This document shows positions 1,488-24,952 of a stretch of 64,000 bases of DNA, piece after piece. The DNA comes from Candidatus Woesearchaeota archaeon (GTDB taxonomy: Archaea; Nanobdellota; Nanobdellia; Woesearchaeales; GW2011-AR4). The position numbers were made by a program, and so were the translations under genes. The DNA is taken from NCBI GenBank assembly GCA_016188245.1, contig JACPIE010000040.1, positions 64,365 through 128,364 of the forward strand, in the 5' to 3' direction. The first letter of the stretch is position 1. Each line of letters begins with the position of its first letter. The notes beneath the pieces are model-generated. The model made no database searches and was not told the DNA's origin. It worked only from the letters and a program-made list of their open reading frames with translations.

Positions 1488-1532
1488 GATACAGCTGGAT
1501 TCAGGCTGCTTTATATAACTTTCTGTCAAAGC

Positions 1533-1551
1533 GATACGCGTTTTTGAGCAT
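1533..1551 (+). repeat. Partial third copy of the hairpin-element left arm (GATACGCGTTTTTGAGCAT)
   Basis: Matches GATACGAAGCGTGTTTTTGAGCAT at 4846-4869; the hairpin part is absent. Confidence 0.4.
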
Positions 1552-1620
1552 CAAAACTGCAGCCCCAATAATAAAATTTAAATAGGAATTGAATTTTTAT
1601 TTGATAAAAAGAGGTTTGCA

Positions 1621-1884
1621 ATGGGCATCAAGCAGTTAAATGCGTTTCAGATTATCCCTTTGGTGATTGGGCTAGGCGCTACTTTTTTTGGATTTAAGCT
1701 TATAAAGGAAGTATACCTCATCAACAACAGCCAGATAAGCTGGCTTTTTGTGCTCGCTGTTTTCAACTGGCTCAGCCTGATTGTACTGCTCATATTCCTC
1801 AGCCTTATTCTGGATGCTTCAAAGAAAGGGCTCGGCAAGCTCGATGTGGTGATATACCTTCTTTCGCGCGGCAAAAAAAAGTAA
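1621..1884 (+). CDS. Small 2-TM membrane protein, tandem paralog 1
   Basis: 87 aa, colinear with the 87-aa neighbour (e.g. SWLFVLAVFNWLSLIVLLIFLSLILD vs SWLMIIAIFSWLTLMILFILLSLIVD). AT-rich upstream region. Confidence 0.6.
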   Translation: MGIKQLNAFQIIPLVIGLGATFFGFKLIKEVYLINNSQISWLFVLAVFNWLSLIVLLIFLSLILDASKKGLGKLDVVIYLLSRGKKK

Positions 1885-1933
1885 AGTGCTGCCAAATAAT
1901 AAAGTTTAAATACATCGGAGGCATTGGATTGCT

Positions 1934-2197
1934 ATGGCGCAGGACAGGATCAATGTGTTTGAAGTTGTTCTTTTGATGGTGGGGGTCGGCGCTGCCGTAA
2001 TGGGCTTTCACCTCATTAATTCCGTTTATAATGCCGAGAGCGGGCAGCTGAGCTGGCTCATGATTATAGCAATCTTCAGCTGGCTTACTTTGATGATTCT
2101 GTTCATACTTTTAAGCCTGATTGTGGATCTGGCCAAGAGGGAACTTAGGGAGATAAAGACAATGATTTTTCTGCTTTCTGAGAATAAGAAAAAATAA
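1934..2197 (+). CDS. Small 2-TM membrane protein, tandem paralog 2
   Basis: Same length and architecture as 1621-1884; both end in a K-rich tail. Confidence 0.6.
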   Translation: MAQDRINVFEVVLLMVGVGAAVMGFHLINSVYNAESGQLSWLMIIAIFSWLTLMILFILLSLIVDLAKRELREIKTMIFLLSENKKK

Positions 2198-2241
2198 GGT
2201 CAGCCTGCTTTTTCTATATTGGAGACTCTATTGTTTAAGTT

Positions 2242-2290
2242 TCATTACTCCCCCATAGTAAATAACCGAAAGATTTATAAAGGGCAAAAA
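2242..2290 (+). promoter_or_regulatory. Recurrent promoter block, copy a (divergent): ...CATAGTAAATAACCGAAAGATTTATAAAGGGCA...
   Basis: Shares the core ATAGTAAATAACCGAAAGATTTATAAAGGGCA with copies at 3498, 6531 and 8833. CGAAAG + TTTATAAA fits archaeal BRE/TATA. Confidence 0.7.
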
Positions 2291-2331
2291 TAGAAATATT
2301 TAAATATAACGTAATCTTATTGAGGGTTATA

Positions 2332-2988
2332 ATGGTAAAATTACAGGTACTGAGGCACGAAACTGTGAAGAGGATATTCGGCAAAGTTGAGATTGAGACC
2401 ATAATCAAGAAAATGGAAGGAAGAAAACTCAAGCAGACAGAAAGAAATTATCTATACAGGTCAATAAGGCCAAAGCTTGTAGCTGCAAGCATGCTGTCAC
2501 AAGAAAGCATATTAAATGAGATAAATAAAGACAATAGAGAGGATACTTTCGCAGTCGAATGCAATCTTTTTCACTATGGTTATGAAATGATTTCTCTAAA
2601 AAAGAAAAAGGGAAAGGTAATTCCCATAGAAGAGCTGATAGTCAGAATACTTGTCAAATTGCCTATAGCAAGATTTATAGAAGCGATTCCAATCATAATA
2701 ATCAAAAACCACATAGATAAGTTTAGGCTGCTTGAGCTTGCGTCTAGCTATGGCATAAAGAACAAGGTAGGGTATCTTTTGGAAACTGCATTTATGATCA
2801 GGCATATGAACTACCTCACAGACTTGCTTTCATACCTTGATTCAAACAAGGACAATGAGGTGTCATTTTTAGTTGAAGGAGATTATGAATTTTTGTTTAA
2901 GGAGTCCCCTCAAAGAATCAAAAAATGGAGGCTGCTTGGAAGGTTTTTTGATGATGATTTTATCAGAAATGCAAAGGCGTACCTATGA
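2332..2988 (+). CDS. Hypothetical protein, upstream partner of a nucleotidyltransferase (AbiEi-like position)
   Basis: ORF 2320-2988; first ATG at 2332. ATGA overlap with the downstream NTase gene. No motif recognised. Confidence 0.5.
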   Translation: MVKLQVLRHETVKRIFGKVEIETIIKKMEGRKLKQTERNYLYRSIRPKLVAASMLSQESILNEINKDNREDTFAVECNLFHYGYEMISLKKKKGKVIPIEELIVRILVKLPIARFIEAIPIIIIKNHIDKFRLLELASSYGIKNKVGYLLETAFMIRHMNYLTDLLSYLDSNKDNEVSFLVEGDYEFLFKESPQRIKKWRLLGRFFDDDFIRNAKAYL

Positions 2989-3485
2989 TTGATAAAAATG
3001 AGCTGGTGAAATGGCTGAAGTCCATTGACAAGAAGCTTAACAGAAAAATAAGTTTAATAGCAGTAGGGGGCACAGCAATGACTTTACTTAGCCTCAAATC
3101 TTCCACCAGAGATGTGGATTTTTGCATAAAGTCAAATGAGAAAAATGATTTTGAGAAATCTTTGGATAAGAGGTTTAAGGTTGACATTTTTACTGACGGC
3201 TATATTTTTTCTGAGCAGCTGCCCTCTGATTATTTTGAAAAGTCAAAAACTATTGTGGAGATGAAAAACATTGCTTTGAAGGCCCTCCATCCAGTTGATA
3301 TAATAATAACAAAGGCGGCAAGGTTCAATGCAAGGGACGAAGAAGACATTAAAGCACTTTCCAAGTACGTTGACAGGAAAGAGCTGGTAAAAAGGTTTGA
3401 TGAGGTTTTGAAGTCATATTCCGGCAAAGAGGAAGATTACAAATACCACTTTAAGGTTATTTTGAAGAGATTTTTCGATGCTTAA
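2985..3485 (+). CDS. Nucleotidyltransferase-fold protein (minimal NTase, AbiEii/DUF6036-like)
   Basis: IAVGGTAMTLLSLKSSTRDVDF matches the G[GS]x9-13 D.D NTase signature. Translationally coupled to 2332-2988. Confidence 0.65.
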   Translation: MIDKNELVKWLKSIDKKLNRKISLIAVGGTAMTLLSLKSSTRDVDFCIKSNEKNDFEKSLDKRFKVDIFTDGYIFSEQLPSDYFEKSKTIVEMKNIALKALHPVDIIITKAARFNARDEEDIKALSKYVDRKELVKRFDEVLKSYSGKEEDYKYHFKVILKRFFDA

Positions 3486-3497
3486 CTTTCCTTCTTT

Positions 3498-3552
3498 TCA
3501 TCACTCCTTCATAGTAAATAACCGAAAGATTTATAAAGGGCAGAAACAATGG
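3498..3552 (+). promoter_or_regulatory. Recurrent promoter block, copy b
   Basis: TCATCACTCCTTCATAGTAAATAACCGAAAGATTTATAAAGGGCAGAAACAATGG. The TATA (3530-3537) ends about 25 nt before ATG 3563. Confidence 0.75.
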
Positions 3553-3562
3553 CTTTGGAATA

Positions 3563-4687
3563 ATGGGGAGATTGGAAGAGATGGTCAGGATAGCTGTTCC
3601 TGTTGGAAGCAGCTTTGAGGGTAGTGGAGCTGAGGCAGTGCAAAAAGCAGATGCTCAACAAAAAGGCATGACGAGAAGAGGTTTTCTTAGAGGGGGGATT
3701 GCATTGGGAGGCACAGTTGCTTTGACAGCTGCATTAGGAGACCATCAAACAGTTTATGCCAAGCAGCCTCTGCCAGTTTTAGAGCCAAATTTTGAATCGA
3801 TAAATGATGAGTTAGTGCAGACAATTGCGCAGATATTACACGAAAGGCTTATGGTAAGGACAAGCATGGCAACTTGGAAAAGAGAGGATTATCAAGCAGC
3901 CCGTTCCAAATTAAGAGGGTATGGGATTGAGCTGGAAGAAGTGCTGTTTGGCTATCCCCCAAACCTCAATAAGTATTTGATTCCAAGAAGATATTATGTA
4001 AGCGCATTGAACTTTCCTCCCATGGTAATAAAAATTTTTCCAATAATGGAAGCTAGAGACTTTAACAGTTTTGTTGATGGCGGAGGCAATACAAGAAGTG
4101 ATGTATTCGGATTCAAGTTTGGAGCCTATACCCAATGCTTGTTGGATTATGAGGCTTACTCTTCTCATAAAGTTGCTCCTTGGGGATCAGAGGGCAAGTT
4201 GGATGGAATCGGGAATGTTGTTGGTGTGCCTTATAAGCATATCCAAGGCATTTTTCGTAATAGGCCGGAGTTAGCTGACTTGGATGCTGAAGCATTAACT
4301 ATGCATGAAATTGGACATTCAATCTTCCGAACACCTTATGAGGATATAGCAACTATGGTTGAGTTAGGATATAAAAAAGAGAAAAGTCCACCAATAAGAA
4401 GTGTAGATGACTTACACAACTATCTTAAGACTAGACGACTTACTCAAAGCAAATTCGATAGAGTTCAATTGGATATATTGTTTCATGGCAATTTTACGCA
4501 CGGGGCGACCATAAGGGCTCTAAAACAAATCGCTGGAGATTTGCAACATACTTCCATGGAACTTAATAAGATTGACAGAAGGAGGTATCCTACAGACGTT
4601 ATGCAAATTTCAGACCAACAATTACATGCAACTATGGAATTGCTTTTCAATAGGACTAATATAAGCGCGCAGTATAGCTATAGGTAA
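3563..4687 (+). CDS. Tat-signal exported protein with HExxH zinc-metallopeptidase-like motif (family unrecognised)
   Basis: MTRRGFLRGGIALGGTVALTAALG is a Tat-type signal. TMHEIGHSIF is the HExxH motif. Paralog of 8894-10078. Confidence 0.7.
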   Translation: MGRLEEMVRIAVPVGSSFEGSGAEAVQKADAQQKGMTRRGFLRGGIALGGTVALTAALGDHQTVYAKQPLPVLEPNFESINDELVQTIAQILHERLMVRTSMATWKREDYQAARSKLRGYGIELEEVLFGYPPNLNKYLIPRRYYVSALNFPPMVIKIFPIMEARDFNSFVDGGGNTRSDVFGFKFGAYTQCLLDYEAYSSHKVAPWGSEGKLDGIGNVVGVPYKHIQGIFRNRPELADLDAEALTMHEIGHSIFRTPYEDIATMVELGYKKEKSPPIRSVDDLHNYLKTRRLTQSKFDRVQLDILFHGNFTHGATIRALKQIAGDLQHTSMELNKIDRRRYPTDVMQISDQQLHATMELLFNRTNISAQYSYR

Positions 4688-4766
4688 CTCATTTCTTTTG
4701 ATTTTTTTTTAACATTCTTAATTATGAAATTTTCTATCAAGTGTCTTTTCAAAATTTTCTCTCAAG

Positions 4767-4967
4767 CGAAAAGCTTATTAATGACTTCCTGCAGTTTCTG
4801 ATTAAAAGAGAGGTATTTTTAAATATGTCAAAAACACCCCACACTGATACGAAGCGTGTTTTTGAGCATGCCCGGAAATCTTGGGTTTCCGGCATGTCAA
4901 AAAAAGAGGCAGTGTTAGTAATAATCCTAGTTATAATTGCCCTACTTGCAAGTGTCTCTTATGCTGC
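4767..4967 (+). repeat. Segmental duplicate (copy A) of the giant-gene promoter plus signal-peptide region
   Basis: Aligns by eye with 10117-10247 (CGAAAAGCTTATTAATGAC...GGTATTTTTAAATATGTCAAAAA...AAGAGGCAGTGTTAGTAATAATCCTAGTTATAATTGCCCTACTTGCA.GTGTCTCTTATGCTGC), apart from a 69-bp insertion. Confidence 0.85.
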
Positions 4968-5004
4968 AAAGCCTCAAAATATGAATGTAAGCATTCTTTA
5001 TTAA
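4825..5004 (+). pseudogene. Truncated remnant of a giant-secreted-protein paralog (signal peptide only, with an in-frame insertion)
   Basis: Encodes MSKTPHTDTKRVFEHARKSWVSG-MSKKEAVLVIILVIIALLASVSYAAKPQNMNVSILY*. The second half is almost identical to the N-terminus of 10174-16275, then stops 11 codons after the SYAA cleavage-like site. Confidence 0.6.
4835..4893 (+). mobile_element. 59-nt hairpin-bearing miniature insertion flanked by direct repeat ATGTCAAAAA
   Basis: Absent from the paralogous site at 10174-10183. Flanked by ATGTCAAAAA at 4825-4834 and 4894-4903. Contains hairpin CATGC-CCGGAAA/TCTTGGG/TTTCCGG-CATG (4867-4896). A related copy lies inverted at 26191-26231. Confidence 0.55.
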
Positions 5005-5063
5005 ACCCTTGATTTACTTACATGTAACTAACATTTATATATAAGTTATGATACTTATACTCT

Positions 5064-5633
5064 ATGCGAGGCGACAAGAGGGAAAGAATACTAAGAGTAA
5101 TGCTCAGCAGCAAGGAAGCATTGAGCAAGAACGAGCTCTCAAAAAGGGCAGAGTGCACCAGGCAGTGGATTATTCTTTTCCTGAAGGAATTAGAGAAAAA
5201 GAAGCTGGTAAACGGAACTACCCCAATAGACAGGAAAAAACTTCTGCAATATTGGATTAACATATCAAGAAGACCAAAAAAATACAAGAGTTATATGGTC
5301 AAAGAGCCATTAGAACTGCTTAAAAAAACTAAGCTAGATTATGCTCTGACAACTTATCAGGCAGAAAACATTGTACAGCATTATCTTTTTCCTTCAAGAG
5401 TGGACTTGTACATGAAGGAAAGTGATTTGGATAGTTGGCACAACCTTCTGACAAAAAATGGATTGTATGGGAAAGGAAATGTCAGAGTCATAATTGCCGA
5501 TGAGCATAGGAAGTATGGAAAAAGAATTATAAACGGGCTTTCAATAGTTTCAATGCCGCAGCTTATTGTTGATTTGACTAATGAAGGAGGCCCTTGTAAA
5601 GAAGCAGCTGAAATGCTTATGAAGAGGATTTAA
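5064..5633 (+). CDS. AbiEi-like protein (N-terminal winged-helix plus C-terminal domain), putative antitoxin/regulator
   Basis: The N-terminus RERILRVMLSSKEALSKNELSKRAECTRQWIILFLKELEKKKLV looks like a wHTH. Immediately followed (TAA-ATG) by an NTase gene, the AbiEi/AbiEii arrangement. Confidence 0.55.
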   Translation: MRGDKRERILRVMLSSKEALSKNELSKRAECTRQWIILFLKELEKKKLVNGTTPIDRKKLLQYWINISRRPKKYKSYMVKEPLELLKKTKLDYALTTYQAENIVQHYLFPSRVDLYMKESDLDSWHNLLTKNGLYGKGNVRVIIADEHRKYGKRIINGLSIVSMPQLIVDLTNEGGPCKEAAEMLMKRI

Positions 5634-6401
5634 ATGTATAAGGAATTTGAAACCAGAACATCATACAATTATTTGAAGGAAGTTATTAAGAACTTGAATG
5701 AGCCTATCTGCATACTAGGCGGCTGGGCTGTCTTCTTTCACGTCAATGAGAAATTTGAGAAAGCCCAAGGCAGGCCATATTTGGGCAGCAGGGACATTGA
5801 CTTGGGATTTAACATCAGCGGAGATTTAAAGCAGTCTGCTTTATCTCAAGCAATATCCATATTGACAAAAAATCTCAATTTTAAGCCATTAAGCTTCAGG
5901 TTGGTGAAAGAAATACACACAGAAACAGAAGAAGAGATTAAAAATGGAGAAATTGTGCAAGCCCACTTTGTTTTTCCAATGTATGTTGACCTGATAGTTG
6001 ATTCAATCCCAAGGGATTTTAGGGAAATATTTGGATTTAGCCCCATTGATGAGCCATTGCTTAAAACCGTATTCGAGAAAAAAGAGTTTGTAATTATAAA
6101 AAAATTTGGAAATAAGCTGCTTCTTCCAAAGATAGGTGTCCTTTTGGCAATGAAAGCAAGCTCAATTCCAAACAGGGATAGGGAGCATAAAAAGATAAAA
6201 GACATTTGTGATATGTTTGCATTGGCATGGTATTCGGATATCAAACTTGCGAATGTTAATCTTACAAAATATGTTTCTAAAAATAACCTTAAGAAATGCC
6301 TAAAATCAATAACACAAGATGGCCTTGAAAAATCAGCTGCTCAGATAGGGCATGACAAGGAAGAGCTAAAAAGGATTATTAATCTTATCTGTAAAAAGTA
6401 A
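5634..6401 (+). CDS. Nucleotidyltransferase (AbiEii-like toxin-type NTase)
   Basis: ILGGWAVFFHVNEKFEKAQGRPYLGSRDIDLGF gives the GG...S.D.D NTase motif. Adjacent to the AbiEi-like gene. Confidence 0.6.
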   Translation: MYKEFETRTSYNYLKEVIKNLNEPICILGGWAVFFHVNEKFEKAQGRPYLGSRDIDLGFNISGDLKQSALSQAISILTKNLNFKPLSFRLVKEIHTETEEEIKNGEIVQAHFVFPMYVDLIVDSIPRDFREIFGFSPIDEPLLKTVFEKKEFVIIKKFGNKLLLPKIGVLLAMKASSIPNRDREHKKIKDICDMFALAWYSDIKLANVNLTKYVSKNNLKKCLKSITQDGLEKSAAQIGHDKEELKRIINLICKK

Positions 6402-6530
6402 TAAAAAATTCATTCTTTTTATGCAGCTTTATTTTTTCTTGGGCTTGCCTGTTAAAGAAATAATAGCGGGTTTTACCAGCATTGGTTTATGATTATGCAG
6501 CAAAGCAAAAATTCTTTAGAGATATATTAT

Positions 6531-6584
6531 TCATCACTCCTGCATAGTAAATAACCGAAAGATTTATAAAGGGCAGAAACAATG
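6531..6584 (+). promoter_or_regulatory. Recurrent promoter block, copy c
   Basis: TCATCACTCCTGCATAGTAAATAACCGAAAGATTTATAAAGGGCAGAAACAATG, near-identical to copies b and d. Confidence 0.75.
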
Positions 6585-6595
6585 ATATTGGAAGT

Positions 6596-6634
6596 ATGGG
6601 GCTGGAAGGGTTGGTTTGGCAAGAAGATTTCTGA
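6596..6634 (+). pseudogene. 12-codon remnant of the Tat-protein family leader (MGLEGLVWQEDF*)
   Basis: Same spacing from promoter block c as the MGRLEEMVRIAVPVGSS / MQRLEDMLKMALPVGSS starts of 3563 and 8894. Nucleotide similarity ATGGGG..TGGAAG, then a stop. Confidence 0.4.
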
Positions 6635-6716
6635 TGGATCTGGAATAGATTAACCACAAAATTTATATATAAGTGCCTACTTTTATTACTAAAATGGTAA
6701 TTTCAGCAGGGGTAAA

Positions 6717-7964
6717 ATGTACTTAAAAAGATTTTTAGAAGAGGATATTAAAAAATACATTAAAAAACGGGAAATAATAGCTATCATAGGCCCAAGGCAA
6801 TCGGGAAAAACCACGCTTCTCGGGCATTTTTATGAAAACCTCAAAAATGCAGTTTTTCTGGATTTTGAAGACAGGGAAACATTAGAGCTGTTTAGCGAAG
6901 ACATTCATTCATTTATTGAGCTGTATGTAAAAAAGCATGACTATGTGTTTATAGACGAGTTCCAATATGCCAAAGAAGGCGGCAAAAACTTAAAGTATAT
7001 TTATGACAACTTCAAAGCTAAAATCATTATATCGGGGTCATCTGCAAGCGAGTTGTCAATACAAAGCATAAAATTTCTTGTTGGAAGGATATTTGTTTTC
7101 ACGCTGTATCCATTCTCATTTGAAGAGTACCTCAGCTGCAAAAATATCGGCTTGTATAATCTTATGAGAATCGGAAAATTAACGCGTCCATTGATAGGGA
7201 GAGTCATGCCTTATTTTAATGAATTTTGTATATACGGAGGCTATCCTAGGGTAATCTTATCCAAAGATAAGCCAGAAAAGGAGATTGTATTAAAAAACAT
7301 CTACAACACCTATTTCCTTAAGGAGATAAAAGAGATCTTAAATCTGCCAGATGACTACAAGTTAAGCAGGTTGATACACGCATTGGCTCTTCAGGTAGGG
7401 AATATTGTGAATTACAAAGAGCTTGCCGACATTACTGGGTTTAACTACAAAGATTTGTTAAGATACCTTAATGTTCTTGAAAAGACATTCATCTTAACAA
7501 GAAGCCTGCCTTTCCATACAAACAAGAGAACAGAGCTCGTAAAGTCGCCAAAATCATTTTTTTTGGATTCCGGATTCAGGAATATTGCCATAAAAAATTT
7601 TCAGCCGGTTGAAAATAGGCCTGACAAAGGGAGCCTTTATGAGAATTTTGTAGCTTCCGAACTGGTGAAATCCGGCATCGGGCTTAAATACTGGCGCACA
7701 AAATCAATGGCTGAAGTTGATTTTGTGATAGAAAGAAATAACAGAATTATGCCTGTTGAAATTAAATCCAGCCTTATCAAGCCCAAGTTTACAAAATCAT
7801 TTTTAAGTTTCCTTGAAAAATATAAGCCCGCAAAATCATTCATATTATCTGAAAGGCTGTTTGCAGAAAAAAATAAAACTAAGTTCCTTCCAATATTTTA
7901 CATTGGGATTTTGGATAAAGGCATGCCAAAGTACAAGGCATTGGCAAGCAGCATCCAGGCATAA
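6717..7964 (+). CDS. AAA-superfamily ATPase (AAA_14 + DUF4143-type, COG1373-like)
   Basis: Walker A IIGPRQSGKTTL and Walker B-like YVFIDEFQY. Length and C-terminal EVDFVIE (restriction-endonuclease-like fold motif) are typical of this family. Confidence 0.8.
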   Translation: MYLKRFLEEDIKKYIKKREIIAIIGPRQSGKTTLLGHFYENLKNAVFLDFEDRETLELFSEDIHSFIELYVKKHDYVFIDEFQYAKEGGKNLKYIYDNFKAKIIISGSSASELSIQSIKFLVGRIFVFTLYPFSFEEYLSCKNIGLYNLMRIGKLTRPLIGRVMPYFNEFCIYGGYPRVILSKDKPEKEIVLKNIYNTYFLKEIKEILNLPDDYKLSRLIHALALQVGNIVNYKELADITGFNYKDLLRYLNVLEKTFILTRSLPFHTNKRTELVKSPKSFFLDSGFRNIAIKNFQPVENRPDKGSLYENFVASELVKSGIGLKYWRTKSMAEVDFVIERNNRIMPVEIKSSLIKPKFTKSFLSFLEKYKPAKSFILSERLFAEKNKTKFLPIFYIGILDKGMPKYKALASSIQA

Positions 7965-8004
7965 ATGTTGGAAATTTAGAGAAGCCATAAATTCCGCAAA
8001 AAAA

Positions 8005-8469
8005 TTATTTCAGCTTGGAAATCAAGATAGAATATTCTGTTGAAGAAATGTAATAACCTATTTCAATGAGTTGGCTTAAAATTTTAAGCACTTCAGGTTC
8101 AGTTATGATTCTTTTTTTCATAGCTGCAAAAATAACCGTTGTTGTCCTTACTGCGTTAATGCCAAATGCTTTGGCAGCTTTTATAGCAACGGCATCATCG
8201 AGTATAATGCCGTCTTTCTTCTCGATAGCGAGGTTGATTGCTTGCTCCTCTCCTGCTCCAAGCCCGATTTTAGTTTTTCTTTTTGGGTTGATTACCTTCA
8301 GCCATCCGCCCTTAATGGCATTGTATATGCTTATATATCCATCCTTATCTTCTATAAGCACTTCCTCCTTTACAGCAGGAGGGATAAGTATAATCTTGTA
8401 TACTTTCTTAAGCAAGTCAAGCTTGCTTATCCTGCTCAAGCAAATCAGCGCTGTTGCATCTGATATCAA
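8005..8469 (-). CDS. PIN-like nucleic-acid-binding protein (DUF3368/COG2405-type), putative toxin
   Basis: MISDATALICLSRI...ILDDAVAIKAAKAFGI pattern. TTGA overlap with the upstream UPF0175-like gene. Alternative (TTG) start. Confidence 0.65.
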   Translation of the reverse strand: MISDATALICLSRISKLDLLKKVYKIILIPPAVKEEVLIEDKDGYISIYNAIKGGWLKVINPKRKTKIGLGAGEEQAINLAIEKKDGIILDDAVAIKAAKAFGINAVRTTTVIFAAMKKRIITEPEVLKILSQLIEIGYYISSTEYSILISKLK

Positions 8470-8792
8470 GATTTTCCCTCTAGAAGCCTAAGATCACTTT
8501 CAAGATCTTCTTTGGAATAGCCCGTCCAGTTTATATTATTCTCTTTTGCAATATCAAGCATTTCCCATAGCGAAAGCCCGCATTCTTCAGCAGCGCTGCC
8601 GATTGAAATTTTGTGCTGTCTCAATCTTTCAATAGAGTTTTGTATTTTCCAAGAGCTTACAGCTTTAGCTAACAGCCTTCTAATGGCTTCTGAGCGGTCT
8701 GCCTGCCAGTTTTTCTCAATTTCAGACAAATCCTTGACAAGTGAATTATCAAGCCTTACCGAAATAGTCGTTGTCATTGTATTCAATATCAT
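8466..8792 (-). CDS. UPF0175/RHH-type antitoxin-like protein
   Basis: N-terminal TISVRLDNSLVKDLSEIE...EAIRRLL is RHH-like. The C-terminal SIGSAAEECGLSLWEMLDIAKENNI is typical of UPF0175 partners of DUF3368 PIN proteins. Confidence 0.65.
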   Translation of the reverse strand: MILNTMTTTISVRLDNSLVKDLSEIEKNWQADRSEAIRRLLAKAVSSWKIQNSIERLRQHKISIGSAAEECGLSLWEMLDIAKENNINWTGYSKEDLESDLRLLEGKS

Positions 8793-8832
8793 ACAATGTA
8801 AACCACTATATAAAGCTTTACTTTTTATTATT

Positions 8833-8886
8833 TATCACTCCTTCATAGTAAATAACCAAAAGATTTATAAAGGGCAGAAACAATGG
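8833..8886 (+). promoter_or_regulatory. Recurrent promoter block, copy d
   Basis: TATCACTCCTTCATAGTAAATAACCAAAAGATTTATAAAGGGCAGAAACAATGG. TATA at 8864-8871, ATG at 8894. Confidence 0.75.
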
Positions 8887-8893
8887 TGTTTGC

Positions 8894-10078
8894 ATGCAAA
8901 GATTGGAAGATATGTTGAAGATGGCACTGCCTGTTGGTAGCTCTGGAAGTGAAACGGCTGGATTGCATGAAGCTTATCAAAATGGAATTACAAGAAGGGG
9001 TTTTCTTGGGGGAGGGATTGCTTCAGCAGCGTTAGTGGCAAGCGGATGCGCTACAACTAAAAATACTCCACATTCTTCAATTGATGATAGAACTATACAG
9101 ACTGCTAGATCGAATAGCATAGATTCAGTACAGGACCCTTTTGTCAGGGATGTTGCGATGTACTTTGATGCCAAATTTAGGACAGGAGACGCTGCTGTTA
9201 AGGAACAAGCTGAACGAAAGTTGACGCGACAAGGAGTTGTAAAAAGAGATTTGGTATTCCCGGAAAACATTAACAGATTATTAATACCTAAAGGTGTATT
9301 TCTAACATCATATACTGTATGGCAGGGCCCTAATCAATATATTGAAACAGCTGCAATTTATAGAATAGCCAAAAAAGATTTTTTTAACGGGTTTTTTCAT
9401 AATGGAAAATGGAGCAACAGATTTTCCGGTTTTCAATTGGAAGGTTATGACCGATATTTGTTTGGTCCGCAAATCTTTGCAACGCATAAAATGCCTGCCA
9501 GATCGGTATATTATACGATTAGGCACCCAGATGGCAAAGCTGAGCGTGTCATTGGAATCCAGCAAGATGCTATACAGAGAGCTTACTCCAGATTTGGCCC
9601 AAAGATAGTGGCAGAAGTGATCCAAGATGTATCAATGGAGGAAGCCGCCCATCTTTTGTTTAGAAAACCGTATAAGTATCCAACAATGTTGGTTGGATTA
9701 GGCGCCTATAGGGTTGATGGCGATATTGATTTAAAGAGTCCAAAAGATGTTGCAGCCAAATTAGCGACGATGGAGTTAACCAAAAATCCGCTTGTAGGTA
9801 TTTATCTTGACCTAATCAGTTTTGTGAATGTAGATGGCAAAAAAGTGCCAAGGGCGCAGGCAACATACGACCCCGGAAATCAGGTTGTTCACCACAATGG
9901 TTTTCTTAGCATAGAAAATGGACTCAGGGAATTAAGTCCAAAGTTAAACAGACATAACGATAAGCTTGCAGCAAATCCGAGTGAATCATCTTATGAACAA
10001 TTGAATTATAGTTTGGCTCACCTGCTTCAAACTAAAGGCAGGGAAACTCTAATCGATTTTCCTTCCGCCGGTAGATAA
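8894..10078 (+). CDS. Tat-signal putative lipoprotein, paralog of 3563-4687 with a degenerate HExxH (EExxH)
   Basis: ITRRGFLGGGIASAALVASGCA is a Tat motif followed by a lipobox-like L-V-A-S-G-C. SMEEAAHLLFRKPY aligns with TMHEIGHSIFRTPY of the paralog. Confidence 0.7.
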   Translation: MQRLEDMLKMALPVGSSGSETAGLHEAYQNGITRRGFLGGGIASAALVASGCATTKNTPHSSIDDRTIQTARSNSIDSVQDPFVRDVAMYFDAKFRTGDAAVKEQAERKLTRQGVVKRDLVFPENINRLLIPKGVFLTSYTVWQGPNQYIETAAIYRIAKKDFFNGFFHNGKWSNRFSGFQLEGYDRYLFGPQIFATHKMPARSVYYTIRHPDGKAERVIGIQQDAIQRAYSRFGPKIVAEVIQDVSMEEAAHLLFRKPYKYPTMLVGLGAYRVDGDIDLKSPKDVAAKLATMELTKNPLVGIYLDLISFVNVDGKKVPRAQATYDPGNQVVHHNGFLSIENGLRELSPKLNRHNDKLAANPSESSYEQLNYSLAHLLQTKGRETLIDFPSAGR

Positions 10079-10116
10079 GTTTTATCTTTCTGCAGCTTTA
10101 TTTAGTAATTTTTTTC

Positions 10117-10247
10117 CGAAAAGCTTATTAATGACTGGTTGCAGTTTTCATTAAAAGAACGGTATTTTTAAATATGTCAAAAAAAGAGGCAGTGTTAGTA
10201 ATAATCCTAGTTATAATTGCCCTACTTGCAAATGTCTCTTATGCTGC
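10117..10247 (+). repeat. Segmental duplicate (copy B): promoter plus signal-peptide region of the giant gene
   Basis: See 4767-4967. CGAAAAGCTTATTAA is a BRE/TATA-like element, and TTTTTAAATATG lies just before the start. Confidence 0.85.
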
Positions 10248-13200
10248 CCAGCAGCAAAAGGGATTTTGGGCTAAAGTGAAAGAGGCAATAAACAGCCTTC
10301 TCTACTGGAGTCCAGAGGACTTGGCTTCCATTTATGCAGATGCATTAAAGACTAATGCAAAGGCAGTTAAAGATGAGAATGGGAATATTATCTTAGTGAT
10401 TGTTGAAGTAGATGGGGGAGTAATCAGAGTAACCAAGTTATCAGATATTCTAAAAACCGCTGACCAACTTCCAACTCCTGAAGAAAAAGCATCATATTTA
10501 AGAGAACTAGTCATAGCCAATGGCGGCCAAAATATTGTGGAAAGGGCAGAGTGGATAGATATAACAAAGCCTGATGTTAGCCAAGTAGCAAAAGATTTTT
10601 TTCCAGGGGTCGTGGAAAAAGTTGCAAAAGAAGAAGCAGAAAAGAATAGAGAACAGGATGCATATGTTCAGCAGCAAAAGCTTCAAGCTGCAGTTAACTT
10701 AATGAGTGACCAGGAAAAATTAGCCAAATCTTTTGAATTGTTAGAAGCTACTGAATCATTGGGTTCAGCACAGGTTTCTTATTCTGGAAACACGAGAACA
10801 ATCTCTTTTGAAGATGGAAACCAATTATCATATGTATGGAATGGCGAGGAATGGGTGCCGGAAAGTTACGAAGAGGGGGCTATTCCAGTCATTGAAGAAG
10901 AAAGTGGTGTAGTTAAAGAACCGCCTAAGTTCTTTTCTAATAAACCTAACTTTAAGCTTGTAACTGATCAATCAAATGTAAAAATTTGGCAGGAAAAAAA
11001 TATATTCATAAAGGTTATTGGAGAGGGAGCTATAAATATCGAATCTTCTGGAATGGACATTTCCAAAGCTCTTAAACTTATAGCCCTCGGAGTTCATATT
11101 GAAATTAGCAGCAACGCCCGTGGCAGTGCATTCAGGATTACTGCTGAAAAAGGTACAATTTCAGTAAGTGCCAGTGATGGAAAGGCAATCGAATTTACCG
11201 ATGTTAAAAGCATTGAGCTGTCTGAACCAAAAAATACAGTATACAACACAGAGGAAGGAATTATTCATAATGGACCGATAGTGCAAACAATAACTGTCAG
11301 AGGGAAACAAACCCAGAATATTGTTGAAACATTTGTAATTGGTGTGGCAACTATCCCTAATTTAGCTACACATGTCTTAATTAAACAGGTTAGTGCAGTG
11401 CATAGTCCTGAAATAACGGCTAGCGGAGGCGGTTTGTCTTATGATTTTGCACCTAAACAAGATGAAAAGATTACAGCAACTTTTAACGGAGAAAACCCAA
11501 TGGCTTATGAGCCTGTGAATTTAGAACATCCCTTTGAATCCTTATCCAGTTTGCAGTTTGGACCTGCTGAAATTGAAACAAAAAGAGGCAATACACTAGA
11601 AAAGCTCATAAGCAACAGTGAAAGATTTATGCTAACAAAAAGTGAAACTCAACCGAATGGAGAAAAAATAAATGATGTTTTAATTGATTTAAACCGGCCA
11701 CAAATTTTAGGAATTAGTAAGTTTACACATGAAACAACAGGTAAAGAAATGATTGCCGTCACAGTTCTGGGTGTGAATACGGCAGGGAGCCTTGAAACTA
11801 ATGTAGTGGCAATGGTAGATGATGGGAACAGCTTCAGAATGATAGATGCAATCAGCAGCAGAGGCGGAAATAGGGAGATTACCGGCGACCCGAGGTTCAA
11901 TGTTTGGGCTCCTAATGTAGAGGCATTTGATGATGGCTCGATGTTTCAAATCGTAGGAACCTCACCAACTCACTATCTGTCACAAAGGATGATGTCAATC
12001 GGTCCCAAGAGCGGATTAACAGCCAATGAATTTAGGGCAATGAGCCCATCTGCATTGGTGGAAAAGCTCCTAATCAACCCAAATCTTGGTGGAGGAATCG
12101 CTACCCCGAGTAGAAGCCAATTTCAAATGAACAATGGAGAACTATTTATCAAGTCTAATAACAACAATCAAATAAAATTAAATAATATTGAAGTTGAGTC
12201 TATTGAAGTAACCCCTCCCTATGTTAGTTTTGAAAGAGGTGCAGCTAGTCCAGGTCGGACTCTTGTTAAGGGAACAGGAGACCGAATATCTGATGGTAAA
12301 AAAGTTGAGTTTCAATTTTGGGTGGAAGATTACGGGTACCCGCCTGTAGAACCAACAATTCAAATCAATTATGTAAGAGAAAAAAAAATAGAGCTTGCTC
12401 CTGAAATTACCACAGTAATTGAACAAGAGCCAATATCCACAGAGTCTAACCCTTTCTCCATCTTCATTCCTCTGCCAACATACTACCCAGCAATTGACTT
12501 TCCAACTCGGCAGCCTCAGCCTAGGATTTGCGGCGATGGAATATTAAATGTTCCGGAGCAATGCGAAAGCCCGAACACAAATGACAATCCTTTCTGCGTC
12601 AACAACCCTATCCTGATGTGCTTAAACAGGAAAACTGCGATAAGAGATGCGTATGGGAAATGCAATTCGGGATGCAGCTGCCAATATGACAGCCCTGCAA
12701 GCGTGTCGTGCATCAAGGGATTGTGCGGGGCAAACTGCTCAAATAACAATGATTGTGCAACTGGCACGCTTTGCAGCAGAACATCGTGCTTATGCATTGC
12801 CCCTCCCCTTAATGGGCTATGCGGCGATGGAATCATCCAGTCTCCAAACAATGACAGCATACATGAAGAATGCGATGGGGATGCTGATGAAATATTGAAT
12901 GATACTGGATTCTGCAAAATTGTAAGGAAATGTGTTGACTGCAAATGGCAGCCCCTTTTAGATTCTTCTGATTCTCAGTTTGAATTATGTGATGGAATAG
13001 ACAACAACTGCAATAGTTTAATAGATGAAAACATCCAGATAACCCCGTCACAAAATGAAGAAGGCTATTGCAATAGCCAAGTTGGAGTCTGCTACAACTC
13101 AAAGAAGAGATGCGGCGGATTGTCTGGATTTGCAGAATGCTCAACTCAAGACTATAACTACACAGGACAATATGAGCAGGTAGAGGCATTGTGCGACAAT

Positions 13201-16200
13201 CTCGATAATGACTGTGATGGCTCGATTGATGAAGGCTGTCCATGTGTCATAAATTCAACAAAATCATGCGGGCAAAGCAATTTTGGAGTTTGCAAGCTGG
13301 GAGTCCAAAATTGCACTGAGCAGGGAGTCTGGGGACTGTGCCAGGGCGCCATTTACTCTGAATCAAACAAGGAAGCAGTGTGCAACAGCATTGATGATGA
13401 CTGTGACGGAATTATTGATGAAAATTTGAAGAACAGGTGCGGCGAATGCGGGCAGCTGCCTGAAGAGGTTTGCGACTATATAGATAATGACTGCGATGCG
13501 GAAATGCAAAGCCCGACAACAAAGTGCACGCAGGAATGCGTTGGAATGTGGATGCTTCAAGGTGCAAAATGCATATTCAATGAATGCGGCAGCGGGTGCG
13601 GCCCTGATAACGTTGATACTTTCAAAACTGAAGTAGAGTGCAAGATTAAATCTATGGATAGTGAAAGAATTTGCCCGCAGCGATGCGTTGGAATGTGGAT
13701 GCTTCAAGGTGCAAAATGCATATTCAATGAATGCGGCAGCGGGTGCGGCCCTGATAACGTTGATACTTTCAAAACTGAAGTAGAGTGCAGCAAGACTGCA
13801 GGGCAATTCTCCCTAAAATCAGATAAAATAACATTTGATAAAGACCAAAATTTAACTGTAACATGGAACAATCCCGGCACTGCAAATTGCGTTGATTCCC
13901 AGATATGCGAACAAAGCAATGCAGAAGCGGGTAAAAATCCAGGGTGCGGCAATGGGCAATGCATGGAATATTTGCATACTGTTACTACAACAATACCGGG
14001 CATCTGCCGCATTGTTGACGAAGGGGGGCAGGTATCCTGCGATCCCGATGGGGTTTCTGAAACTTCTACTTCATACCCTGAAAGCTGCCAGGTATGCCCC
14101 CAAGACTGCGGCCAATGCGCCCCAAAATGCACCAACACTACAACATGCGCTCCTTCAACACCGAACTACTATGATTTTATTACATTTGTGCCTTTGGGGC
14201 AGTCAAGCTATGACGGCTTTCCAATTGAATATGTAAAAGGGGCAAAAGCAGGCACAGGCAGCATTAAAGTACCTCCTGTTCCCGGCAAGTATGAGCTGGT
14301 TTATGTTGACTATTCAACCAAAAACATTATTGCCAAAGGCTCTGCTATCACCGTTAATCCGCCAAAAGATGCTGTATGCGCGGCAGATTCAAAACAATGT
14401 CCTGACGGCAGCTCAGTTGGAAGAGACCCAGCTAACAACTGCAACTTTTATCAATGCAAAAAATCAATATTAAATGCTGATTTTGCCAATCCTTGCCCTT
14501 TCGGCACAATCTGCAAGGGAGTTTACGCTGACGGCATTGACAGCAACGCAAACGGAATTATTGATGAGGGGATAGATGAAGACGTCAAGACCAATCCCTC
14601 CGGAAACTATACAAACTGGTGCGATGCAAATGCATGCACAAAGATAAAGAGGACATGCTCCAAAGTGTTGGAAGATGAATTCAAAAAAATATACAGGAAA
14701 AAAGACAAGTCAAAGCTGGAAGAATACATAAAAGGAAGCGAATATTTCTCATGCCCTCCTGATGATAGCGATGCAGTTTGCTGCGAAAATCCAAATTCAT
14801 GCGTCTACAACGGGAAGTGCTATGCCAATGGCAGCATTGAAGACATTGGCAACGACGGAATAATGGACATGTGTGTAGTAGAAAGCCCAGGAACATGGGT
14901 TGTCAATTACGAAACCAACTGCATAGACGGAATAACCAATGACGCAGATCCTTTGATAGACTGCCAAGACCCTGATTGCGATGGGTTGCCGGGCCAAAAT
15001 GGGGCAATATGCTGCCATTCTGCAAATGACTGCCCGCAGGACGACTGCGTTGCGGAAAGCTGCGCGAATAATGAATGCGCGCTCACAAGCAGAAATTTAT
15101 GCGATTCGGCCGAATGCCCCCAAAATTCATTCTGCAATGCAACAGCAGGAGACTGCAAAGCAGCGGATGAAAGCAGCAGCGTGTGCTTAAATTGTGTTGC
15201 AGACTCAACTTTAATGTCATGGAACTCCACATCCCATATTGACGCCGGCAAGGAGTATTCAAGCAATCTAAATGTGTTCAACTCATTGTTTAATTCAGAT
15301 GCGCTTTCCTGCCCGCCTTCAAGCTGCTCCAAATCAAACTGCAGCTGCTTTGATTCGTCAAACAGCATTGCAAATCACAATGCTGCAATATCTGGAGGGA
15401 ACTGCTGCGGAGACGATCCAAATGAATATTTCAAGAAAGACTATTTTGGAGGAGAATGCGCAAATAATGCAAGCGATTGTGTTTGGCCAACTGGAGACTC
15501 GCAAAAAAGCAACACAGGAAATGCTGAATGGTGGTGCTACCTTCATGAATGGTCCCAATGCGATAACAGCTCGATCGGCAGCAAAGCCGGAGCTGTAACC
15601 TGCGCCGGAATTTCTGGAAACAACAGATGGATGTTAAATCCTGCTCCTGAAAGCCAATACTCATGCAATGACTTAAAAGACAATGATGGAGACGGGGCAG
15701 CGGATTGCGAGGATAGCGACTGCTACAGCGCGCTTCAGGGGAAAGTGACAGATGGGTCAAACTCCCCAATCAACGGGGCGTCTGTGATTGTCAGGAAAGG
15801 CAGCAGCCAAATTGCATCCTTGACGACAAATTCCCAGGGAGATTATAACGCAAGCTCATTATCATGCGGAAACTATCAGGTGTCTGCTTCGCATTATGAA
15901 TATTCAACACAATCCAGGTTTTTCACGGTCAATGCATTGCAGCAGTATAACATAGACATTGTTTTGGGAGCTGAAAACTCATGCGAAGCTGACTGCACCC
16001 TGGCATATGACGAGACGATACATGCTTCCTGCGCAAACATAAACGGCTGCACCTTTTATGACGACAAAGCAAAGGAAATATGCGATTTTGCAAAGCCGGG
16101 CTGGGTCAGGGATTATAATGAAACACACTACATTGCTTGCGCTTCAGGCTCTCCTGAAGCCAAGATTGAGTTAAAAGCAAGCATAAGCTGCGCATCAGGA

Positions 16201-16275
16201 ACCCTTGTCAAGATTACAAGAATCGTGCTTTACAACGGCGAGCCTGTCAAGCTTGTTGTGGCAGCATGCGGCTAG
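10174..16275 (+). CDS. Giant (2033 aa) secreted Cys-rich surface protein with MopE-like CxxxD(N/D)DCDGxxDE motifs and a C-terminal CarboxypepD_reg-like domain
   Basis: Signal peptide MSKKEAVLVIILVIIALLANVSYAA. Motifs CDGIDNNCNSLIDE, CDNLDNDCDGSIDEGC, CNSIDDDCDGIIDE, CDYIDNDCD and CNDLKDNDGDGAADCEDSDC. GKVTDGSNSPINGASVIVRKG...TNSQGDY is a regulatory-like beta-sandwich. Very high Cys content after about residue 780. Confidence 0.85.
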   Translation: MSKKEAVLVIILVIIALLANVSYAAQQQKGFWAKVKEAINSLLYWSPEDLASIYADALKTNAKAVKDENGNIILVIVEVDGGVIRVTKLSDILKTADQLPTPEEKASYLRELVIANGGQNIVERAEWIDITKPDVSQVAKDFFPGVVEKVAKEEAEKNREQDAYVQQQKLQAAVNLMSDQEKLAKSFELLEATESLGSAQVSYSGNTRTISFEDGNQLSYVWNGEEWVPESYEEGAIPVIEEESGVVKEPPKFFSNKPNFKLVTDQSNVKIWQEKNIFIKVIGEGAINIESSGMDISKALKLIALGVHIEISSNARGSAFRITAEKGTISVSASDGKAIEFTDVKSIELSEPKNTVYNTEEGIIHNGPIVQTITVRGKQTQNIVETFVIGVATIPNLATHVLIKQVSAVHSPEITASGGGLSYDFAPKQDEKITATFNGENPMAYEPVNLEHPFESLSSLQFGPAEIETKRGNTLEKLISNSERFMLTKSETQPNGEKINDVLIDLNRPQILGISKFTHETTGKEMIAVTVLGVNTAGSLETNVVAMVDDGNSFRMIDAISSRGGNREITGDPRFNVWAPNVEAFDDGSMFQIVGTSPTHYLSQRMMSIGPKSGLTANEFRAMSPSALVEKLLINPNLGGGIATPSRSQFQMNNGELFIKSNNNNQIKLNNIEVESIEVTPPYVSFERGAASPGRTLVKGTGDRISDGKKVEFQFWVEDYGYPPVEPTIQINYVREKKIELAPEITTVIEQEPISTESNPFSIFIPLPTYYPAIDFPTRQPQPRICGDGILNVPEQCESPNTNDNPFCVNNPILMCLNRKTAIRDAYGKCNSGCSCQYDSPASVSCIKGLCGANCSNNNDCATGTLCSRTSCLCIAPPLNGLCGDGIIQSPNNDSIHEECDGDADEILNDTGFCKIVRKCVDCKWQPLLDSSDSQFELCDGIDNNCNSLIDENIQITPSQNEEGYCNSQVGVCYNSKKRCGGLSGFAECSTQDYNYTGQYEQVEALCDNLDNDCDGSIDEGCPCVINSTKSCGQSNFGVCKLGVQNCTEQGVWGLCQGAIYSESNKEAVCNSIDDDCDGIIDENLKNRCGECGQLPEEVCDYIDNDCDAEMQSPTTKCTQECVGMWMLQGAKCIFNECGSGCGPDNVDTFKTEVECKIKSMDSERICPQRCVGMWMLQGAKCIFNECGSGCGPDNVDTFKTEVECSKTAGQFSLKSDKITFDKDQNLTVTWNNPGTANCVDSQICEQSNAEAGKNPGCGNGQCMEYLHTVTTTIPGICRIVDEGGQVSCDPDGVSETSTSYPESCQVCPQDCGQCAPKCTNTTTCAPSTPNYYDFITFVPLGQSSYDGFPIEYVKGAKAGTGSIKVPPVPGKYELVYVDYSTKNIIAKGSAITVNPPKDAVCAADSKQCPDGSSVGRDPANNCNFYQCKKSILNADFANPCPFGTICKGVYADGIDSNANGIIDEGIDEDVKTNPSGNYTNWCDANACTKIKRTCSKVLEDEFKKIYRKKDKSKLEEYIKGSEYFSCPPDDSDAVCCENPNSCVYNGKCYANGSIEDIGNDGIMDMCVVESPGTWVVNYETNCIDGITNDADPLIDCQDPDCDGLPGQNGAICCHSANDCPQDDCVAESCANNECALTSRNLCDSAECPQNSFCNATAGDCKAADESSSVCLNCVADSTLMSWNSTSHIDAGKEYSSNLNVFNSLFNSDALSCPPSSCSKSNCSCFDSSNSIANHNAAISGGNCCGDDPNEYFKKDYFGGECANNASDCVWPTGDSQKSNTGNAEWWCYLHEWSQCDNSSIGSKAGAVTCAGISGNNRWMLNPAPESQYSCNDLKDNDGDGAADCEDSDCYSALQGKVTDGSNSPINGASVIVRKGSSQIASLTTNSQGDYNASSLSCGNYQVSASHYEYSTQSRFFTVNALQQYNIDIVLGAENSCEADCTLAYDETIHASCANINGCTFYDDKAKEICDFAKPGWVRDYNETHYIACASGSPEAKIELKASISCASGTLVKITRIVLYNGEPVKLVVAACG
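13536..13789 (+). repeat. Perfect 107-bp direct repeat (13536-13642 and 13683-13789; 147-bp period) inside the giant gene
   Basis: Letter-by-letter comparison shows identical copies, each encoding CVGMWMLQGAKCIFNECGSGCGPDNVDTFKTEVEC. Confidence 0.9.
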
Positions 16276-16276
16276 A

Positions 16277-16609
16277 ATGAAAAAACAAGAACATGCAAAG
16301 AAAAAAAGGTGGAACTTTCATTTATTGGTTCCTGCACTTGTGCTTGCGGCAGTCTGGCTTGTGTTTTTCAGCATTGGCACATCAAAAAATGAAAAAGATA
16401 GTGATTATAGGGGCGAAGCAATCCAAATGGGCAAAATTGACGAGAATATTTTGAATGGGATTAAGGACATGGAATATAGCAAGGTAAAGGAAACGCTCAA
16501 TGCAACGGGCGATTTCTGCCTTGTTGTTGTTGACGGCCAGAATTCGGTTTTGCTGGAAAAGCATCCGGGCGGCAAAACTCAGGCTGAATTGTGCGATGGA
16601 ATGGTTTGA
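16277..16609 (+). CDS. Small N-terminally anchored membrane protein (110 aa)
   Basis: ATG one nt after the giant-gene stop; its TGA abuts the next ATG. MKKQEHAKKKRWNFHLLVPALVLAAVWLVFF is a TM anchor. Confidence 0.6.
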   Translation: MKKQEHAKKKRWNFHLLVPALVLAAVWLVFFSIGTSKNEKDSDYRGEAIQMGKIDENILNGIKDMEYSKVKETLNATGDFCLVVVDGQNSVLLEKHPGGKTQAELCDGMV

Positions 16610-21037: not shown

Positions 21038-21039
21038 AA

Positions 21040-24757: not shown

Positions 24758-24892
24758 GTAAGTCTGGACCAAAAAAAGTAATATATACGCTTCTCAACAT
24801 TATATGGCTAGTTGCTATGATGGCATTAGTTGTAAAAGTATACGGTTAATCTTTTTCTTTAAAATTTTTAGTGTAGCTCTTGATAATTGCAC

Positions 24893-24908
24893 TTGTATGT
24901 GCACAATT
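24893..24908. repeat. Left 16-bp inverted repeat TTGTATGTGCACAATT bracketing the fic gene
   Basis: Exact reverse complement of 25894-25909 (AATTGTGCACATACAA). Confidence 0.9.
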
Positions 24909-24952
24909 AACCGAAAGATTTATATATTATGTGCCCATACAATATTGTATGG
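24909..24952 (+). promoter_or_regulatory. fic promoter (AACCGAAAGATTTATATA) plus 18-bp palindrome CCATACAATATTGTATGG over the start codon
   Basis: The BRE/TATA core is identical to the recurrent block core. The perfect palindrome at 24935-24952 contains ATG 24949. Confidence 0.7.

Follow-up and report, generated by a model that had tools for sequence, protein, structure and literature searches.

Our analysis concerns a block of about 50 nucleotides (nt) that recurs four times within 6.6 kb of a 64-kb window, i.e. the whole stretch of DNA that was analyzed (C19:64365-128364 of an assembly of 41 contigs and 1.29 Mb). All coordinates given without a contig or locus name are positions in this window. 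The source genome (G000) and the three congener species G014, G022 and G024 belong to the same Woesearchaeota genus, a lineage from Rifle groundwater. The results suggest, with a probability that we put at about 0.6, that this block serves as the operator-promoter native to a rapidly evolving family of secreted proteins with a twin-arginine translocation (Tat) signal, which heads a giant surface-protein operon in an accessory island, and that its copies come from local duplication and cassette insertion. An initial sequence-only reading had proposed a portable promoter cassette spread by duplication or recombination; duplication or recombination is retained here, whereas portability appears largely wrong for the window.

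A repeat search of the window groups the four sites as one family of direct repeats on the same strand (2241-2312, 3497-3568, 6530-6601 and 8831-8902), in which the block copies proper occupy 2241-2288 (copy 1, truncated), 3497-3551 (copy 2), 6530-6584 (copy 3) and 8831-8886 (copy 4). Over 57 nt, copies 2-4 are mutually 93-95% identical and copy 1 shows 81-86% identity with them, its match ending at about 2288, roughly 7 nt beyond its TATA box. The 16-mer AACCGAAAGATTTATA is present in the window at 2264, 3520, 6553, 8854 (one mismatch) and 24909, a count of five compared to about 0.1 expected by chance, and none of 100 shuffles reaches five. The block-specific flanks CATAGTAAATAACC and AAGGGCAGAAACAATG are found at only these four places in the whole 1.29-Mb genome. 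Repeat search, shuffles and genome-wide flank search therefore bear out the recurrence of the block at four sites.

Three of the four window copies (copies 2, 3 and 4) carry the 5′ coding end of a single family of Tat-signal genes, with two intact paralogs and one 12-codon remnant, and do not head otherwise unrelated gene sets as had been thought. Copy 2 precedes paralog A, a Tat-signal HExxH protein of 374 aa (3563-4687, plus strand), and copy 4 precedes paralog B, an EExxH protein of 394 aa (8894-10078). Paralogs A and B share only 28% identity overall but about 65% over their first 45 residues. At the DNA level, units 2 and 4 have in common the promoter and 224 nt of 5′ coding sequence, then a body that cannot be aligned, then a 3′ flank of 213 nt that is 90-94% identical. 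In unit 2, this flank (4767-4979, plus strand) comprises the intergenic region and the first codons of the giant gene and corresponds to 10117-10259 of unit 4; the giant-gene start of unit 2 is cut short at 5004. Between copies 3 and 2, identity amounts to 81% over 112 nt (6530-6638 compared to 3497-3607), and the homologous start codon of copy 3, at 6596, opens just 12 codons. Copies 2 and 4 thus each belong to a larger unit that has been duplicated (promoter, signal-peptide region, 3′ flank and giant-gene start), and copy 3 is a decayed duplicate. The possibility that the block belongs to some longer repeated mobile element holds insofar as copies 2 and 4 are embedded in this larger unit (with promoter, N-terminus and 3′ flank), which is itself not a mobile element. 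The copies do not look like miniature inverted-repeat transposable elements (MITEs) or insertion sequences (ISs) either: they lie within 6.6 kb, on one strand and without terminal inverted repeats.

Relative to 10117-10259, the 3′ flank of unit 2 also has an extra insert around 4825-4903. The motif ATTGGAAG, which encodes Leu-Glu and is always in frame, is found at 3575-3582, 6588-6595 and 8902-8909 and in the congener copies. Almost all copies keep it in their N-terminal coding region, as does the G022 gene, and it lies 30 or more residues ahead of the Tat-like RR motif.

Paralog B and the giant surface-protein genes that follow extend from 8894 to 22239 on the plus strand. The giant gene that starts at 10174 is preceded by a Shine-Dalgarno-like GAACGGT and has no separate TATA box or transcription factor B recognition element (BRE). 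Since it lacks a BRE/TATA of its own, block 4 is likely the promoter of the whole region, and it probably drives 8894-22239 as one operon.

The block itself is made of three parts: (i) a dyad, (ii) a BRE/TATA six bases further on, and (iii) about 22 nt leading to a start codon predicted to be leaderless. In the complete copy 2 (3497-3562 when counted up to the start codon, plus strand), the dyad consists of TCACT (3501-3505), a spacer of 7 nt and AGTAA (3513-3517), and is followed by the BRE (3522-3528) and the TATA box (3530-3537). Copy 1 (2241-2288, plus strand) has TTACT at 2245-2249, the same spacer length, AGTAA at 2257-2261, the BRE at 2266-2272 and the TATA box at 2274-2281. In copy 3, which extends over 6530-6638 (plus strand) with its decayed N-terminal remnant, the dyad is found at 6534-6550 and the TATA box at 6563-6570. 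In copy 4, also complete (8831-8893, plus strand), TCACT (8835-8839) and AGTAA (8847-8851) are again separated by 7 nt and the TATA box lies at 8864-8871, its first base being 30 nt away from the ATG at 8894.

The core CGAAAG-A-TTTATAAA corresponds to the consensus BRE/TATA of the genome, with 53 exact and 229 near-exact sites, as an archaeal core promoter should. The 16-mer AACCGAAAGATTTATA has 29 genomic sites within two mismatches and the exact GAAAGNTTTAWA has 53, and most of the listed core sites have an ATG some tens of bases downstream. The 16-nt core is hence an ordinary consensus BRE/TATA of this genome and is not specific to the block. This genome consensus supports the earlier identification of the core as a BRE/TATA promoter. 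The ATG that terminates the block (3549-3551, 6582-6584 and 8884-8886), only 12 nt past the TATA box, opens no long open reading frame (ORF) and is not the start; the true starts of the long ORFs, at 3563 and 8894, follow the first TATA base by 30-33 nt. This distance is the same (30-33 nt) in every intact copy in the window and in the relatives. In archaea, the centre of the TATA box precedes the transcription start by about 26 nt, so that a TATA-to-ATG distance of 30-33 nt fits a leaderless mRNA. The transcription start of copy 2 is predicted at about 3560, right in front of the ATG (3563). Since AAGGGCAGAAACAATG lies between the TATA box and this predicted start, it would not be a leader: the conserved stretch that follows the TATA box is predicted to be upstream of the start of a leaderless mRNA, and the near-identity of the copies would not cover a transcribed leader, contrary to what had been supposed.

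The 16-mer is indeed present before fic (24909), as the sequence-only reading had noted, but it represents there merely the generic consensus promoter. The fic promoter (24888-24924, plus strand) was considered as a fifth block and rejected: only the generic core is common, and the BRE/TATA is preceded by a different element, the perfect palindrome TGCAC-N6-GTGCA (24888-24903). With respect to the BRE, this palindrome is placed just like the dyad of the block, i.e. the same architecture with another operator. A general hairpin upstream of promoters was ruled out, as inverted repeats of at least 5 bp are found upstream in 27% of cases compared to 22% downstream and 17% at random, and no position-specific conservation was detected upstream over 367 loosely defined promoters. 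The block DNA shows no stable fold, hairpin or attC-like structure (z-scores of 0.03 to 1.65 compared to shuffles) and there is no relevant Rfam match in 1500-10500 of the window. A structured RNA leader or known RNA family was ruled out on these grounds and because transcription is predicted to start beyond the conserved part; an attC-like element was discarded since folds of the block DNA are no better than those of shuffles.

The genes found between the copies carry promoters of their own. The nucleotidyltransferase (NTase) cassette (2286-3485, plus strand; identified by Pfam and by DNA homology with congeners) comprises a 218-aa gene (2332-2988) and a DUF6036 NTase gene (2985-3485). Its BRE/TATA, AAAATAGAAA.NTTTAAATATAAC, has its TATA box at 2299-2306, 33 nt before the ATG. 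Over 2286-3476, the cassette shows 67-79% DNA identity with six congeners (loci L028-L033), where it is found in unrelated contexts with its promoter conserved. The homology begins at this BRE/TATA (2286, exactly where block 1 ends) and stops near the stop codon. Since it starts there and includes a conserved promoter, copy 1 is not the promoter of the cassette; it is a truncated promoter stump joined, a few bases after its TATA box, to an autonomous NTase cassette. The role of NTase-pair promoter formerly given to the block is therefore not upheld, the pair keeping a native TATA box (2299-2306) that is conserved in six congeners. The same applies to the AAA ATPase that the block was also thought to serve. 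The gene of this AAA_14/DUF4143 protein (6717-7964), assigned from Pfam, belongs to a cassette (6628-7964, plus strand) that has its own TATA box at 6662-6669 and displays 81% DNA identity with a G014-like metagenome contig.

Two other modules complete this region. A two-gene module on the plus strand (5064-6401), located between unit 2 and block 3, consists of a gene encoding a helix-turn-helix-like protein of 189 aa and a gene encoding a protein of 255 aa. A DUF3368 (PIN-like)/UPF0175 toxin-antitoxin cassette (7999-8826, minus strand; Pfam) backs onto block 4 by its own promoter at about 8812-8823 (minus strand). In this window, the promoter backs onto the left arm of the block, with AGTGATAAA upstream of the minus-strand TATA box. 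The cassette shows 73% DNA identity with L021:5674-6505 of G014 and adjoins the block in both genomes, in opposite orientations.

The genome and its relatives were searched for further copies, as the sequence-only reading had advised. There is no further copy in the genome and the block 42-mer is absent from 60 relatives, while a looser motif detects the block before related islands in three congeners (G014, G022 and G024). The alignment of 11 copies from four species shows that ATCACT(C/T)(C/T)-N3-(A/G)TAGT(A/C)AA and the BRE/TATA (AAAG.TTTA.A) are invariant or nearly so. Copies cluster by genome, with 93-95% identity within G000, 84-89% within G014 and 74-84% between G000 and G014. G014 carries three co-oriented copies on one contig, which head respectively (i) an intact HExxH member of the family (387 aa), (ii) a 26-aa remnant of that gene, and (iii) a 57-aa fusion of the N-terminus of the other family member with a MopE-like piece of the giant gene located downstream of that member. 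This fusion copy (remnant b) is best read as a duplicate of the whole unit with an internal deletion. BrnT-like and MazF modules are located between the G014 copies, and a PIN/UPF0175 pair upstream of them. G024 has two copies, the first beside a paralogous PIN/UPF0175 pair and the second heading a Tat-signal protein; beyond a Tat-like signal, its block-headed proteins have no detectable homology to the Tat-HExxH family. The G024 pair was considered as an ortholog of the window pair and rejected, as a paralog on contig C5 resembles it more closely. In G022, a single divergent copy precedes a methyltransferase-like gene. Overall, blocks occur in multiple copies with toxin-antitoxin modules between them, and these differ between strains.

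A scan of metagenomes for the block returned only G014-like contigs. In one G014-like strain, a module encoding HEPN and MNT-type NTase proteins (L025:656-1820) stands in place of the 5′ portion of the gene for the BrnT-like toxin (L021:2790-3088), with a breakpoint exactly at the 5′ edge of block a. Among species-representative genomes, the Tat-HExxH family was found in G014 and in no other relative. Its members show 23-28% identity with paralog A across genomes, compared to 73-81% at the DNA level for the neighbouring cassettes. On contig C69 of G014, a DDE transposase gene (L005:4-762) terminates shortly before the second family member; the block copy of this contig has lost the dyad and keeps only the BRE/TATA and the downstream part.

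The sequence-only reading had pointed to CACTCC..CATAGTAAA as a candidate protein-binding site, and this extra conserved upstream sequence is very likely a regulator site. It contains the dyad T(C/T)ACT-N7-AGTAA, which forms the upstream half of the block, ends 6 nt before the BRE and lies in the invariant words ATCACTCC and ATAGTAAA. Copy 1 has a perfect TACT-N7-AGTA, compared to CACT-N7-AGTA, with one mismatch, in copies 2-4 and in the congener copies. In Euryarchaeota, members of the TrmB family recognize TACT-N3-AGTA (TrmB of Pyrococcus furiosus and Thermococcus litoralis, Pfu/Tli), the Thermococcales glycolytic motif (TGM) TATCAC-N5-GTGATA (TrmBL1/Tgr) or TACT-N7-8-GAGTA (VNG1451C of Halobacterium), and activate from sites upstream of the BRE/TATA and repress from sites downstream of it (PMC4158304). 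Since the dyad is upstream of the BRE, binding would activate. The upstream 25 nt of the block are thus, by association, probably a putative TrmB-type operator in activating position.

In the genome, YYACT-N4-8-AGTRD has 124 sites, 12 of which are located within 12 nt of a BRE/TATA; eight of these 12 lie outside the block, compared to 0.23 expected. The eight further dyad promoters, with the dyad 1-9 nt before the BRE/TATA, are C2:10935, C6:80947, C6:93636, C6:71698 (minus strand), C8:5162 and one on the minus strand of each of C38, C39 and C41, none of them in the window. The callable genes behind them belong to no Pfam family above threshold and several resemble small membrane or secreted proteins; neither an ORF nor an Rfam match was found at the dyad loci C22:20953 and C39. 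When the pattern from dyad to BRE/TATA was searched in the whole order (at most three mismatches), 42 hits were obtained in 36 of 401 genomes, one of them being copy 4 of the window, compared to a single hit with the reversed control. Eight of the 42 hits are directly before a TrmB-family gene encoding 260-270 aa (the promoter of paralog 2, in other genera), which was confirmed as TrmB-like by N-terminal sequence in six cases and assigned by position only in two.

The source genome encodes two TrmB/Regulator_TrmB proteins (C13:444-1259 and C41:1035-1796, both on the minus strand). The main, TrmBL2-like paralog is found in 58 out of 61 genomes in the order, with 72-85% identity across families, and its closest solved relative is TrmBL2, with a full-length alignment. 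The promoter of this gene is conserved (..GTAAAAAACGTAACATATTAATAGTAGTAC..) and followed by a leader of 50-70 nt that ends in AAAAGGGGGGTG (loci L074-L103); AGTAGT is found directly after the TATA box in 19 of 30 main-paralog promoters. The dyad is therefore found as would be expected of a TrmB operator: at a fixed position at several promoters, in a genome that has a TrmB-family gene, and in the promoter of such genes, although the source genome's own copies carry the motif only in part. By association, the probable regulator is one of the source genome's two conserved TrmBL2-like proteins. The idea of a shared regulator, already put forward from the sequence, thus remains plausible and now has a specific candidate.

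Taken as a whole, these observations are best explained by the following scenario. The copies would have arisen in the island itself, by segmental duplication and by recombination assisted by homology, and decay, together with insertion of or replacement by selfish cassettes, would follow duplication. Gene conversion or recent copying would keep the copies of a genome alike (93-95%), while the bodies of the genes, which would diverge fast or be replaced, are only 28% identical. A TrmB-family regulator would bind the dyad and activate, or at least co-regulate, intact copies and stumps.

Several points weigh against this interpretation. The blocks of G024 and G022 head genes without detectable homology to the family, so that the association is not strictly with one family at the genus level. 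Cassettes end repeatedly at the 5′ edge of the block, which could reflect targeted insertion instead. As for the operator, TCACT takes the place of TTACT/TACT in three window copies out of four and in every congener copy, which makes the dyad imperfect; the invariant ATCACTCC exceeds the length of a TrmB half-site and might be the site of another factor; and the promoter of the main TrmBL2-like gene of the source genome (C13) has ATCACT and lacks the AGTAGT word.

Part of the same evidence can be read as an insertion or exchange hotspot, in which the 5′ edge of the block, or the block acting as a homology anchor, would be a preferred site for inserting or swapping toxin-antitoxin and defence cassettes, each event leaving an extra copy, much as in an integron lacking its integrase (homology-facilitated illegitimate recombination). 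This would account for the PIN/UPF0175 cassette adjoining the 5′ edge in G000 and G014 in opposite orientations and a paralogous pair at the same place in G024, for the HEPN/NTase breakpoint exactly at the edge of block a in the G014-like strain, for an NTase cassette that starts inside block 1 and ends 12 nt before block 2, and for multi-copy blocks with intervening toxin-antitoxin modules in three species. However, in a compact genome any neighbour adjoins a promoter, so that coincidence with the edge weighs little; the sole tyrosine recombinase of the genome is on another contig (C2), the block shows neither a hairpin nor an attC-like structure, the cassettes bring promoters of their own, and remnant b of G014 is best explained by duplication of the whole unit with an internal deletion. 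We consider a hotspot a genuine though unlikely alternative, and an integron-like system proper was ruled out, with no integrase nearby, the only tyrosine recombinase on C2 and repeats devoid of hairpins. The portable promoter, a 50-nt promoter/leader unit copied before unrelated accessory genes that it would drive coordinately, seems quite improbable. It agrees with four near-identical copies within 6.6 kb and with the G024 and G022 blocks standing before genes not detectably related to the Tat-HExxH family, and copy 1 could give the NTase pair a second, upstream start. It is difficult to reconcile with the fact that three of four copies bring the 5′ coding end of one family, that the NTase pair and the AAA ATPase keep their own promoters, that no copy exists elsewhere in the genome nor the 42-mer in 60 relatives, and that the block has neither terminal repeats nor structure.

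The contrast between flanks (90-95% identical) and bodies (28%), like that between family members across genomes (23-28% with paralog A) and neighbouring cassettes (73-81% at the DNA level), could also suggest an expression-site or variation system, in which the conserved 5′ module and 3′ flank would serve as recombination arms for swapping divergent bodies, with stumps as by-products. Nevertheless, each genome has only two intact bodies, no silent cassette archive and no invertible or recombinase-linked sites were found, and gene conversion of the flanks combined with fast evolution of the bodies gives the same pattern, so that we judge such a system very improbable. Chance similarity or an assembly artefact is next to impossible: no shuffle out of 100 reaches the observed count, the copies differ at few bases and sit in unique contexts, and the same architecture was assembled independently in a congener genome and three metagenome contigs. 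Lastly, native operator-promoters multiplied by duplication might be part of something broader. A near-universal TrmBL2-like master regulator of Woesearchaeales might switch on a few strong leaderless promoters of secreted, surface and ORFan genes, including the giant adhesin-like operon, while the block would also be a recombinase-independent anchor for the exchange of toxin-antitoxin and defence cassettes, each event leaving a live stump. We advance this broader scheme only tentatively and regard it as rather unlikely.

To our knowledge, gene regulation is experimentally uncharacterised in Woesearchaeota and other DPANN archaea, and our literature search found no paper describing a TrmB regulon in DPANN archaea. 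The locus described here offers a concrete cis-element, in which a dyad and a consensus BRE/TATA are set at a constant distance and followed by a predicted leaderless start, and names a TrmBL2-like protein as candidate regulator of the genes most likely to mediate host or surface contact. It also illustrates how an accessory island may be built in a compact archaeal genome, with promoter-plus-5′ fragments duplicated and toxin-antitoxin cassettes with their own promoters slotted between them and swapped among strains.

Compared to known systems, the locus shows partial likenesses to several. Integron arrays (attI/attC and IntI) likewise have co-oriented short repeats separating small accessory cassettes; however, the locus has no nearby integrase, its repeat is unstructured, and its cassettes carry their own promoters and lie in some cases on the opposite strand. 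As in toxin-antitoxin and defence-island mosaics, selfish two-gene modules (DUF6036 NTase, PIN/UPF0175, BrnT-like, MazF, HEPN/MNT) are found between fragments of resident genes and the content differs between strains, but the fragments of this locus are always the same promoter and 5′ end and are always co-oriented, unlike in usual mosaics. In Borrelia burgdorferi, the "upstream homology box" of erp genes is a conserved promoter/operator before divergent multi-copy genes for surface lipoproteins, homogenised by recombination and co-regulated. By analogy, the block is also a repeated conserved promoter/operator before divergent surface-protein genes, although erp genes have a bacterial sigma-70 promoter, many plasmid copies and known operator-binding proteins, whereas two intact genes and stumps are found here at one chromosomal locus. 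The block resembles TrmB operators in its dyad, whose TACT/AGTA core is interrupted by 7 nt and stands directly before the BRE/TATA, in the TATCAC half-site also present in copy 4 and the G014 copies, and in the recurrence of the same words in the promoters of TrmB-family genes themselves, which is consistent with autoregulation. It differs from them by a left arm that is mostly TCACT and by ATCACTCC, which exceeds the TrmB half-site. Furthermore, TrmB targets are genes of sugar metabolism compared to secreted or ORFan proteins for the block, and TrmBL2 of Thermococcales is a largely non-specific chromatin protein, whereas a TrmBL2-like protein is the candidate regulator of the block. Overall, duplicated promoters and gene stumps are an ordinary genomic phenomenon and the core promoter is standard, while the operator-promoter module appears to behave like TrmB/TGM-type regulons, of which it would be a putative member.

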